NCBI GenBank assembly: GCA_963841015.1
Contig: CAWJAX010000003.1
Span: 128,001-192,000, forward strand
Reading direction: 5' to 3'
From: an uncultured Methanoregulaceae archaeon
Lineage (GTDB): Archaea > Halobacteriota > Methanomicrobia > Methanomicrobiales > Methanospirillaceae
Length of the DNA: 64,000 nucleotides
Shown: positions 823 to 61,805 of the stretch, one piece after another
Position numbering within the stretch: the stretch's first letter is position 1
Layout: every line of letters starts with the position of its first letter
The notes under the pieces: generated by a model
Databases searched by the model: none
What the model saw: the letters and a program-made list of their open reading frames with translations, nothing else
Told to the model about the DNA's origin: nothing
Translations under genes and position numbers: made by a program

Positions 823-1036
823 GGCTCTGTAGAATTCCTTATATCAGGGTATTAAGTTTAAAGCACTGGCATGATGATGGAGGGGGCAGTGCCTGTCTCC
901 GCTTGCCATCCTGGTGCTCAAGAGTGATGATTACGTAGTACCTGTTCTGGTCGTATCGCATCTGGGCGGGAGCCAAAGCGGCGGGGGTGAAACCCTCTGA
1001 ACGTTCAGGTTTTATAAAAAACATTTCTCCAGAGCC
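823..1036 (+). mobile_element. MITE-like dispersed repeat, copy A (214 bp, intact TIRs)
   Basis: Ends GGCTCTGTAGAA (823-834) and TTCTCCAGAGCC (1025-1036) form an 11/12 inverted repeat. The interior is homologous to the reverse complement of 53852-54058. Confidence 0.85.
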
Positions 1037-4694: not shown

Positions 4695-5039
4695 GTGAGT
4701 GGGAGGAGTAAGCCTCCTTCTGTTTTTAGCGGCATTCAGCTATGCGTCATACCCGGACAGATACCGAGCGATCCAATTGTCCTGTTCTGACTTGCACCCG
4801 CAGGGATTCGCCGTTTCACCGATTCCTGTCTGTTAACGCTCAGCGAGTGATCACACAGATCGTGTGCACTTGACGGTACACCGTCTCGATCGCTTCATGA
4901 CTGAAAACAGGCCGTGTCGTTTCTGTGCCATTGCCGTGACTCTCGCCACCCGTACTTGTGTACGGCTGCGTGCCCGGTGGGTGGGAGGACTTTCCTCAGC
5001 AGCCAGAATGGCCACCGTCGGCCGCTCTCTCCCTCTCCT
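4695..5039 (-). ncRNA. rnpB: Archaeal RNase P RNA
   Basis: Minus strand carries GAGGAAAGUCC near the 5' end, ACAGAAA and UGAAACGGC internally, and AACAGAAGGAGGCUUA near the 3' end. The GGAGAGGGAG 5' end pairs with the CUCCUCCC 3' end (P1). Ends approximate. Confidence 0.93.
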
Positions 5040-5136: not shown

Positions 5137-5350
5137 GGTCTTTCATAAGTACTCAATAACAATATGAGCGCACGCAGTGATTTCACCCCTCCTGTTTCTG
5201 TCTCCCTCACATGCGATAACCCTGGTACAGGCAATTTATTATTATCGCTCTAAACTCCGGGGAGGGATATTATGGCACCTGCACTGTCTGCTCTGGAATG
5301 TACCGGTAATTTGTATCTCGTTTCAACGGAGAAGGAATTTTTATCGAGCC
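5137..5350 (-). mobile_element. Degenerate copy B of the MITE-like repeat (214 bp)
   Basis: Collinear blocks shared with 53852-54058: CTCAATAAC, TTTCACCCC, CTCCC..ATGCGATAAC, ACAGG, ATCGCT, GCACTGTC, AAGGAATT....GAGCC. Same length as copy A. Confidence 0.75.
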
Positions 5351-5594
5351 CATTAACCTGAACACTCCCAGCACGATCTACCTCTCCGCCGCCACTCACC
5401 TTCCGGTTATCAATAAATTCTGAACAGATTTTCAATCATCATTTATAGAAGCACAATAGTGGTACGGGCGGACAGGTTCTTTCTTGTCTTTCAACTGCCC
5501 TGCGCGTATGATTTCATTGTTTAACGTAGGGAATTCTCAGATTCCATGTTCGAAAGATTGTTAAATAAGGTGCACTAAAGACAGTCTCAAAGAT

Positions 5595-30924: not shown

Positions 30925-30999
30925 TGCTGCTATGGGGATTCGAACCCCAGTCGCGGGCGTGAAAGGCCCGCATGATTGGCCGGACTACACTATAGCAGC
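30925..30999 (-). tRNA. tRNA-Glu (UUC)
   Basis: GCTGCTA acceptor stem, anticodon arm CGGGC-CTTTCAC-GCCCG, T loop GTTCGAATC; no intron, no encoded CCA. Confidence 0.96.
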
Positions 31000-31969: not shown

Positions 31970-32029
31970 AGCTTTTATGGGGTGTACTTGGTTTTGTAGT
32001 TTTTTCTTTTATCTGAACTGCTTCCCTGA

Positions 32030-32170
32030 AATACGATAACTCACAAACATACAATATGTCCCCATCATTCTCATCGCAGGAAGGAAAAGGCGCAGGGACG
32101 GTATGTCGTTTCTTCCATCGTACCCGTGCTTTTTACTTTTTGTAAAAAGTAAAAGGAATTTCAGAGAGCC
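32030..32170 (-). mobile_element. Truncated, degenerate copy C of the MITE-like repeat
   Basis: AATACGATAACTCACAAACA, TCATCGC, GCGCAGGGACGGTATG and AAAAGGAATTTCAGAGAGCC are collinear with 53921-54058. Confidence 0.65.
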
Positions 32171-40849: not shown

Positions 40850-40934
40850 CGCCGGGGAAGAGATTTGAACTCTTGAGGTGCAGGGCACCAGTAGCTTTCA
40901 AGGCTACCGCCTTCCCGGACTAGACTACCCCGGC
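40850..40934 (-). tRNA. tRNA-Ser (UGA)
   Basis: GCCGGGG acceptor stem, anticodon arm GTAGC-CTTGAAA-GCTAC, long variable arm GGTGC-CCT-GCACC, T loop GTTCAAATC. Confidence 0.95.
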
Positions 40935-44373: not shown

Positions 44374-44527
44374 ACAACAGAGATCTTGGGTGATGCCCCT
44401 TAATATGCGTTCCTGCCAAATATGACAGGAATGCGCTTGTTTTGAGTACTGGGGCACAGATTGGGATGTTTGATAACGTTATTATTCATAAAAGGGGAAA
44501 TTGGGATCTCGATAGGAAATGTAATAC

Positions 44528-44680
44528 AAAGCACTGGAGAGATGACGGATGAGTCCTTATCTTTTCCCCTCTTGCCCCGTACTTGTAACGATGATGCCGA
44601 ATCTCCTGTTCAAGTGTTATCGCATTTTTCGGCTGAACATAAAGAGGGGGGGCGAAACTCCTCTTGAGTCCTCAGCTGGC
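44528..44680 (+). mobile_element. Degenerate copy D of the MITE-like repeat (termini eroded)
   Basis: AAAGCACTGG, CTTGCC, CGATGAT, CCTGTTC, GTTATCGCATT, GGGGGGCGAAACTCCTCTTGAG and AGCTG are collinear with copies A and E. Confidence 0.72.
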
Positions 44681-44721
44681 TTTTTAAGTCTCTTTCCTGA
44701 ACTGAAATCTCAGAAAAAATG

Positions 44722-53267: not shown

Positions 53268-53441
53268 TTATTCCATGTGAATTGCTTCAGAAGGACAGAC
53301 GTCAACACAGGTTTCGCAGTCTACACACATATCCTTATCGACTTTCGCCTTTTCGTTCTCCATTGCAATCGCCGATGCCGGGCACTCACTTACACAGGTC
53401 TCACACCCGGTGCATTTATCCTTGTCTACTACTGCTACCAT
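53268..53441 (-). CDS. 2[4Fe-4S] ferredoxin
   Basis: CTGCETC...CP and CVDCETC...CP. Confidence 0.93.
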   Translation of the reverse strand: MVAVVDKDKCTGCETCVSECPASAIAMENEKAKVDKDMCVDCETCVDVCPSEAIHME

Positions 53442-53446
53442 ACCAT

Positions 53447-53620
53447 TCACTCCACCATTATTGCTTCTGAGGGGCAGATGTCAACACAGGTCTGGCAGTC
53501 TACGCACAAGTCCTTGTCCACCTGAGCTTTTTCGTTCTCTAGTGCGATTGCTGATGCAGGACATTCATCCACGCAGGTTTCGCATCCGGTACATTTACTG
53601 GTGTCAACGATTGCAACCAA
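53447..53620 (-). CDS. 2[4Fe-4S] ferredoxin (tandem paralog; probable TTG start)
   Basis: CTGCETC...CP and CVDCQTC...CP; GGAG SD-like motif upstream. Confidence 0.9.
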   Translation of the reverse strand: MVAIVDTSKCTGCETCVDECPASAIALENEKAQVDKDLCVDCQTCVDICPSEAIMVE

Positions 53621-53851
53621 CTTTGTCACTCCATCGTATATGTTACACAAAAGATAAAAAATAGGTTTCGATAGTACCCTTCAAAAAAAACGAGATAATC
53701 GGCATTTTTTTGTTTTTTAAACCAGTGCTATATATGATTGGTTAAAAAATGATTCGTCTGGGCCGTATATCATCTTGACAAGTCATAACGAATAATTTTT
53801 AAAAATAACTAAGGGCCACCATAATCTGACACGGGATTATTTAAAAAAAAT

Positions 53852-54058
53852 TGCTCTGGAGAAATGCTCAATAACAGCTAAACGCTCAAGGGGTTTCACC
53901 CCCGCCGCTGTGGCTCCCCCAATGCGATAACTCCCGAACAGGTTCTACGTTATCATCGCTAAGCGCAGGGGCGGCATGGGGGGACAGGCACTGTCCCCTC
54001 CTTCATTCTTACCAGCATCTTGAATTTCATATCAATGGAAAAGGAATTCTACAAAGCC
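53852..54058 (-). mobile_element. MITE-like dispersed repeat, copy E (207 bp) with 9-bp direct repeat flanks
   Basis: Ends TGCTCTGGAGAA / TTCTACAAAGCC; AAAAAAAAT on both sides (53843-53851, 54059-54067); homologous to 823-1036. Confidence 0.85.
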
Positions 54059-61594: not shown

Positions 61595-61805
61595 GAATCT
61601 TTAACATTCCATTTTTTTAATAAAATAAAAGGATGAGTAATCTGAATTGGCATGAACAATGCCCGGACCCATCACCTCTCAGCGATCACGCAGCGATTAT
61701 GACGGACTACTTTTCCAGGATGTATCCAATGGGGATGGAGCACAAAGCGGCAGGTGTCAGAGTCCCGTTAATATCTCAATTTCTTTGATATTTTTCTCCC
61801 AAGAT
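61595..61805 (+). mobile_element. Highly degenerate copy F of the MITE-like repeat
   Basis: GAATCTTTAACATTCC, TGGCATGA, AGCGATTATGACG, GTATC, GGAGCACAAAGCGGCAGG and TTTCTCC are collinear with 823-1036 over a similar length. Confidence 0.62.

Follow-up and report, generated by a model that had tools for sequence, protein, structure and literature searches.

The repeat and its copies in the window

The window, by which is meant the whole stretch of 64,000 nucleotides that was analysed, comes from a Methanoregula-like methanogen whose genome has been sampled as 2.28 Mb in five contigs and is 94% complete. It holds an RNase P RNA of the archaeal type (212.9 bits) and two tRNA genes, which mark the host as an archaeon, as well as two tandem units of 174 nt that are 74% alike and lie about 220 bp from one of the repeats (copy E), and seven copies of a MITE, i.e., of a short, non-coding and mobile element of about 205 to 214 bp (Table 1). 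When the search is extended to the whole genome by iterated nhmmer, 144 matches to the element are found, 74 of which are near full length, and among the 110 copies with 140 or more model positions covered, the mean pairwise identity is 67%. Stop codons occur in several frames of the copies, as read from their sequences, and the MITE subfamilies differ by an indel of 16 nt, from which follows that a conserved reading frame is ruled out. The element keeps largely to intergenic DNA, in the sense that 105 of 117 copies overlap no ORF by more than 30 nt.

The interior of the MITE contains hairpins, and those that an earlier note had read in copies A, D and E are present as it described them. Hairpin 1 is GGGGGCAG-TGC-CTGTCTCC in copy A, with its two G-U pairs at 884-898 and 886-896, and GGGGACAG-TGC-CTGTCCCC in copy E, where the stem is perfect. 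The sequences of hairpin 3 in copies A and D, as well as the two halves of the central stem in copy A, are those of the note; in copy E the central stem is GCGAT paired with ATCGC, and the inner stems TACG/CGTA (copy A) and TAAC/GTTA (copy E) are also found. What the central stem encloses is variable: in copy A it is about 22 nt long, in another genus about 65 nt.

Table 1. Coordinates of the features discussed in the text (positions in the window, or contig positions in the host genome, G000, where a contig is given)
Feature	Position	Strand	Remarks
MITE, copy A	823..1036	+	214 bp, from left TIR GGCTCTGTAGAATTCC to right TIR CATTTCTCCAGAGCC
Hairpin 1, copy A	882..900	+	8-bp stem, loop TGC, two G-U pairs; kept across lineages, with compensatory changes
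Central stem, copy A	924..959	+	GTGAT (924-928) with ATCGC (955-959)
3' part of the core with the widest conservation, copy A	955..1006	+	TATCGC, G run, GCCAAAGCGGC, hairpin 3, then TGAACGTT
Hairpin 3, copy A	983..997	+	GGGGG-TGAAA-CCCTC; across lineages the closing pair is U-A or C-G
Archaeal RNase P RNA	4697..5037	-	
MITE, decayed copy	5147..5340	-	model positions 9-199
MITE, decayed copy	5355..5538	-	model positions 7-185; adjoins the copy at 5147..5340
tRNA gene	30925..30999	-	
MITE, truncated copy	32020..32169	-	5' part only, model positions 1-146
tRNA gene	40850..40934	-	
MITE, copy D	44514..44700	+	degenerate, model positions 23-206, no recognisable left TIR
Hairpin 3, copy D	44647..44663	+	GGGGGG-CGAAA-CTCCTC
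Tandem 174-nt units	53281..53633		
MITE, copy E	53852..54058	-	207 bp, youngest subfamily; ortholog in the relative G128, 96% identity
Hairpin 1, copy E	53998..53980	-	
MITE, decayed copy	61599..61784	+	model positions 4-188
IS5-family insertion sequence with MITE termini	C3:194783-195789		1007 bp; L153 501-1507
IS5-family insertion sequence with MITE termini	C5:79673-80679		1007 bp; L154
Repeat families with the 3' core and other termini	C2:126224, C2:343231, C3:23329, C3:473009, C4:114405, C1:3866, C2:544833		and others
Composites of the two MITEs	C3:13199-13634, C3:465040-465481, C2:474887-475324		at least eight more

Termini, transposase partner and mobility

The MITE is bounded by TIRs of about 17 bp, in which GGCTCTGTAGAA pairs with TTCTCCAGAGCC. 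Of the 74 near-full copies, 38 have both ends recognisable with four mismatches or fewer, and in many of these 38 a target duplication of 8 bp is visible, which is rich in A and T (ATTTATTC, GGATTTTC, ACTATTTC, AGATACCG, GAAAATCG). The 16-nt terminus of the MITE is found in the same genome also as two pairs, each exactly 1007 bp apart, and each pair delimits an insertion sequence of the IS5 family, the nearer of which begins about 2.8 kb past the end of the window. Both insertion sequences enclose a product of 300 aa that matches DDE_Tnp_1 (6.4e-24) and, with 214 bits at a cut-off of 140, the NCBIfam IS5 model NF033579; the transposase gene is antisense relative to the orientation used here for the MITE. 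The overlap between the MITE and the insertion sequence, as read from the two sequences, amounts to only about 18 and about 30 nt at the two ends, and when the core model is run on the 1007-bp insertion sequence there is no match inside it. The DDE transposase of this IS5-family element presumably mobilises the MITE in trans. The open frame of the 1007-bp insertion sequence extends beyond its terminus. An origin from ISL3, with ends of the GGCTCTT type and 8-bp duplications, was also considered and rejected: PF01610 has no match in the genome, the control genomes are matched, and the partner is of the IS5 family.

The mobility of the family can be judged by comparing the genome with that of a close relative (G128). 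Twenty sites that are occupied in the relative were considered; at least four of them are empty here, at least six carry an orthologous copy, and the rest are rearranged or rich in repeats. At the empty sites the flanks abut or overlap by 6-11 bp, and most flank alignments between the two genomes are 90-97% identical. From sites that are empty in one genome and occupied in the other follows that the family has moved after the two species split.

Folding and decay of copies within the genome

The folding of a single copy is unremarkable: for copy E, z is -1.0 on either strand, and for copy A it is -2.46, with one of 200 shuffles folding as well as the copy itself. According to the earlier note, substitutions in the stems give G-U pairs on one strand and A-C mismatches on the other. 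This is the case in copies A, D and E; genome-wide, however, C>U and G>A changes are symmetric, at 0.104 and 0.097 in paired columns and at 0.150 and 0.135 in unpaired columns. When only hairpins 1 and 3 are counted in the own genome there are 121 G-U against 81 A-C, a difference of a kind that the other stems do not display.

The search for covariation within the genome gives a similar picture. When all pairs of columns are ranked over the 110 own copies, the top of the ranking is taken mostly by columns that are diagnostic of subfamilies (35, 39, 42, 113, 114, 137, 138 and 188), and the proposed stem pairs are absent from the top 60, save for one pair that belongs to an alternative register of the central stem. 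In a core alignment of 109 Methanoregula rows, 86.7% of the cells pair, as compared with 85.8% after shuffling. Both-sided changes account for 54 of the 3726 cells of this alignment, and 33 of these are an artefact of how the long variant of hairpin 3 is aligned; compensated cells are fewer than unpaired ones at all pairs but the one affected by the long variant. RNAalifold, when applied to the gapped 109-row alignment, predicts no structure. A stem GGUA/UACC around hairpin 1 was discarded as a mere subfamily polymorphism.

The placement of copies with respect to flanking genes is likewise symmetric: of the copies in tandem contexts, 22 have the sense and 23 the antisense orientation, i.e., there is no bias. 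Convergent genes flank another 36 copies, and divergent genes another 23.

To see what happens to a copy after insertion, consider the six pairs of orthologous copies in the two related genomes, which are 84-96% identical. In three of the pairs a single alignment runs across both flanks and element, with an identity of 92.7-95.1%, while in the other three the flanks, aligned separately, are 85-97% identical. On the whole, the orthologous copies have diverged further than the DNA beside them. In the orthologous copies the conserved blocks have changed only slightly more slowly (44/523) than the remainder of the element (82/671; p = 0.037). From the ortholog comparison together with the comparisons within the genome follows that inserted copies decay in a roughly neutral manner.

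Conservation of the core between lineages

When the consensus sequences of four subfamilies are compared, GGAGGGGACAGTGCCTGTCCCCCC, CCGCCCCTGCGC, GCGAT...TTATCGC and GGCGGGGG...CCCCC are nearly unchanged, while linkers of 3-4 nt and the spacers vary. In the youngest subfamily (52 rows) the blocks deviate from the consensus by 3-6%, the spacers by 8-12% and the termini by 12-15%, so that the core is indeed more conserved than the spacers, as had been claimed. The loops are more permissive. An insertion of 16 nt with a stem of its own, GGCAT...(A/G)TGCC, is found in the loop of hairpin 3 in 58 of 212 copies, and extra insertions also occur in the loop of hairpin 1 and within the central stem.

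A covariance model of the core matches 16 of the 29 genomes from the same family and 10 of the 20 from a second family of the order, and it matches none of the 101 genomes from four other families of the order. The stretch that is most conserved across families is the 3' part, which consists of YTATCGC, a G run, GCC..AG.GGC, hairpin 3 and RGAGCGT.

In 36 divergent copies, which come from other genera and families, a both-sided change has occurred at 26 of the 35 model pairs. The number of both-sided cells is 104, the shuffled mean is 38.6, none of 500 shuffles reaches 104, and controls in which the pairing is slid give 14-25. When one row is kept per locus, so that 26 rows remain, the cells of the three local hairpins comprise 378 Watson-Crick pairs, 45 G-U, 20 A-C and 30 others, counted on an alignment that was fitted to the model, with related rows and without regard to the tree. 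Exchanges between pairs are found in all three hairpins. In hairpin 1, A-U in 13 rows is replaced by G-C in 8 and, at another pair, C-G in 12 by G-C in 4; in the central stem C-G (10) alternates with G-C (4); in hairpin 3, C-G (12) alternates with U-A (5), and another pair is G-C in 16 rows, C-G in 4 and A-U in 2. Judged from these alignments, the three local hairpins are maintained between lineages by compensatory changes. The excess of G-U over A-C leans to the GGCTCTG strand, but the lean is a modest one that may owe something to the fitting of the alignment to the model and to the relatedness of the rows.

The selection on a folded strand that the earlier note proposed is in this way divided into a part that stands and a part that does not. 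Between lineages the hairpins are kept, covary, and have more G-U than A-C (45 against 20); within the genome, in contrast, the rates in the stems are symmetric, there is no bias of gene orientation, and neither the own copies nor the Methanoregula alignment yield useful covariation. Nor does covariation extend to the long-range helices CCCCUG/CGGGGG and CCG/CGG, which were rejected since their varying pairs are mostly unpaired or A-C: in the 26 rows the long-range helix has 19 G-U, 18 A-C and 37 other cells, and it is unsupported.

The core between other termini

The core is not confined to the MITE. The own genome has at least four further repeat families, smaller ones with 7, 6, 4 and 3 copies of about 300-400 bp, in which the 3' part of the core recurs, and these families have other termini (AGGGTAATGT..., GGGTATAGTC...) and other 5' halves. 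In another genus of the same family (G041), the whole core is repeated head to tail 6.8 times, in units of 215 bp that are 83% alike (L165, 1458-2923). In every unit of the array the core is complete and holds a central insert of about 65 nt, and the GGCTCTG termini are missing throughout. A further locus, L180 (G157), is listed with this array.

Within the right terminus of the main MITE lies another MITE, about 225 bp long and rich in GC hairpins, with the ends CCATGAAAAT... and ...ATTTTCATGG, and the composite of the two, about 440 bp long, has been amplified as a unit to at least 11 copies. The MITE family had at one stage appeared to possess two kinds of terminus, which is explained by this nesting.

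Signs of transcription

Contigs from metatranscriptome libraries of two studies cover copy E. The summed depth is 66-321 in bins over copy E and 0-49 in the flanks (runs X1, X3 and X4), with the exception of one bin in X4, over the 5' part of copy E and the adjoining flank, where it is 13; these depths are sums over repeat copies from libraries that may contain DNA, and the contigs carry information on neither strand, ends nor level. They give only a hint that copy E is transcribed.

In the window, at the gathering score, no Rfam family, the self-cleaving ribozymes among them, matches the element. When copy E is searched with E values up to 10 the sole match is a chance one to a lncRNA, and the divergent copies have none. 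When the four subfamily consensuses are inspected by eye, the sequence upstream of hairpin 1 has no TATA-like box at a constant spacing, from which follows that an RNA made from the core would lack an obvious promoter. The sequence CTGA-GCG-ATGATGA could be taken for a C/D box or a K-turn; this reading was rejected, as ATGATGA is not kept and other subfamilies have AGTG or TGTG instead.

What the core may be selected for

The explanation that we consider probable is that an IS5-mobilised MITE carries a foreign core which is selected in source copies only. The element would be moved in trans by the DDE transposase of the resident 1007-bp insertion sequence. Between its borrowed termini lies a core of about 130 nt, rich in G and C and foreign to the insertion sequence, with three local hairpins and short invariant blocks. 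Selection would keep this core in no other copies than the few sources from which new copies and new families descend, where compensatory changes would preserve the stems and the loops would accept extra stem-loops; a copy that has been inserted decays at about the neutral rate. The reason for placing selection in the source copies, and not in each insert, is that the inserts decay and the hairpins are nevertheless kept between lineages. Selection that acts in source copies only points, in turn, to a benefit for the element, so that the core would probably be of use to the element and not to the host gene that happens to adjoin it.

The excess of G-U, the insertions in the loops and the re-use of the core between different termini taken together make us lean to a folded single strand, so that the core would act in the form of its GGCTCTG strand. 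Because a DDE transposase is not known to pass through a single-strand intermediate, RNA is the likelier form, and it would most likely come from a minority of the copies; less likely, the core would consist of DNA palindromes that ease the synapsis of the two ends. As far as sequences can tell, an RNA function of the core is possible. Several observations go against the explanation by source copies: the lean to one strand is absent from the rates within the genome, the orientation with respect to genes is unbiased (22 against 23), the conserved blocks of orthologs have changed only slightly more slowly (p = 0.037), and the folding energies of single copies are ordinary. The sharing of the core between families, moreover, could partly reflect recent horizontal spread or the capture of old copies by new termini.

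Consider now the alternatives, beginning with a core that is itself a functional ncRNA, i.e., a mobile structured gene or module with three hairpins on the GGCTCTG strand and a role in trans or in processing or stability. This is a tentative and somewhat unlikely reading. Compensatory changes between lineages in all three local hairpins, 45 G-U against 20 A-C, the tolerance of inserted stems in loops of variable length, and the recurrence of the core in tandem arrays and with different termini all speak for it, but the long-range helix is unsupported, copies decay once inserted, with symmetric substitution within the genome, and there is neither a match in Rfam, nor an orientation bias, nor a conserved promoter-like box as judged by eye. 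The RNA-library contigs of two studies also favour it, in that they cover copy E at 66-321 against 0-49 in the flanks, the X4 bin at 13 excepted, yet they derive from repeat copies that add up and lack strand and transcript ends. In a wider version, which we think unlikely, the core persists in the Methanomicrobiales as a self-contained structured RNA module of about 130 nt, a functional ncRNA that hitch-hikes on several unrelated transposases. The module would consist of the three hairpins and the 3' motif GGGG-GCC..AG.GGC-GGGGG-loop-CCCCC-RGAGCGT, it would have been repackaged between transposon termini and into tandem arrays, and the MITE would be its most successful vehicle.

If the hairpins are instead cis-acting palindromes in DNA, either sites for protein binding or a flexible hinge that joins the ends for the transposase, then compensatory changes are no surprise, as they are expected of any inverted repeat. 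The missing orientation bias and the confinement of constraint to source copies would fit as well, and the stem and loop of hairpin 1 are invariant across the Methanoregula subfamilies in the way of a sequence-specific site. The sequence d(GCGAAGC), which forms an unusually stable DNA mini-hairpin, is found in hairpin 3 of most lineages. Even so we judge such palindromes to be an improbable answer: an excess of G-U over A-C is unexpected for them in duplex form, the invariant blocks CCGCCCCTGCGC and GCCACAGCGGC are not palindromic and are left unexplained, and the core is common to elements with different termini and so, presumably, with different transposases. That the core is passive filler, and that its conservation is an appearance created by young families, horizontal spread and new termini flanking old copies, is quite unlikely. 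Blocks would hardly be near-invariant in filler when the linkers of 3-4 nt between them and all the spacers vary between subfamilies, the 3' core can be aligned across two taxonomic families when the remainder cannot, and the stems change through paired substitutions; on the side of filler are the decay of copies at least as fast as their flanks, the insertion polymorphism, which testifies to recent activity, and the frequency of nested and composite elements, such as the 225-bp MITE in the right terminus with its composite of at least 11 copies. The earlier note had also thought of a REP/REPIN-like substrate. Such a substrate, or a single-stranded DNA substrate of the IS200/IS605 type, or a guide-RNA scaffold of the TnpB type, would account for GC-rich hairpins close to the ends and for the hint of strand specificity, but these elements lack the TIRs and 8-bp target duplications that the MITE has, its partner is an IS5 element, and neither Y1 (PF01797) nor the TnpB zinc ribbon (PF07282) has a match in the 94%-complete genome when both match in control genomes. 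All three of these readings were rejected, and we regard them as exceedingly improbable.

Relation to known elements

With IS5-derived MITEs of other prokaryotes the present one shares the short, non-coding format, TIRs that are the same as in a resident IS5-family element, target duplications, a high copy number, mostly intergenic positions and insertion polymorphism. What sets it apart from those MITEs is an interior that has no relation to the partner insertion sequence, that has been conserved in two archaeal families, and that repeat families with other termini also carry. Among archaea, the SM elements of Sulfolobus and the MITEs of halophiles and methanogens are non-autonomous and are mobilised by resident insertion sequences, and the present MITE resembles them in both respects. 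Bacteria have small mobile repeats that can fold into stable hairpins once transcribed, namely Correia or NEMIS elements in Neisseria, ERIC or IRU in enterobacteria, and BOX and RUP in pneumococci, of which the BOX repeats have a modular build. The archaeal MITE differs from these in its host, in having no sequence relation to them, in having no Rfam match and in having no orientation bias to genes. The palindrome-associated elements derived from REP/REPIN and IS200/IS605 are similar to it in their GC-rich hairpins and in a possible recognition as single strands, and dissimilar in that the Y1 protein (RAYT/TnpA) that defines them was not found here and that TIRs and 8-bp duplications are present.

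The class of element is thus known already, and the MITE family is new, with a core that is unusually modular, conserved between lineages and hairpin-bearing. In a search of the literature, no report was found of a MITE in Methanoregula or of a structured core shared among archaeal MITEs. One paper mentions archaeal MITEs in general terms and describes a Methanoregula assembly with an IS content of 12.8% (PMC13343696).

If the core does no more than aid the movement of the MITE, this is a well-resolved case of how the interior of an archaeal MITE evolves, with constraint at the source and neutral decay of the inserts, and the MITE is at the same time of use for tracing recent changes in the genomes of peat and sediment methanogens. 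If, on the other hand, the core is a working RNA, it represents an archaeal ncRNA family with more than 100 copies per genome that switches its transposon vehicle, and it would tie RNA function to the way in which mobile elements spread.

Taxonomic distribution

A scan with 19-mers finds the element almost exclusively in assemblies of Methanoregula and Methanoregulaceae. Three further matches of 19-mers, all in bacteria, were dismissed as chance, and a single match of a core 17-mer in viral contigs was not confirmed by the core model. In the second family of the order, a genome (G025) has a copy with the same termini and long inserts (L039 / L167), of which one, about 60 nt, lies in the loop of hairpin 1 and another, also about 60 nt, after the G run. 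Full copies are present, finally, on four contigs that are filed under Nitrospirota and Dehalococcoidales assemblies (L060, L092, L064 and L082). The flanks on L060 and L064 are 74-88% identical to the own archaeal genome, from which follows that these contigs are probably mis-binned DNA of a Methanoregula-like organism.
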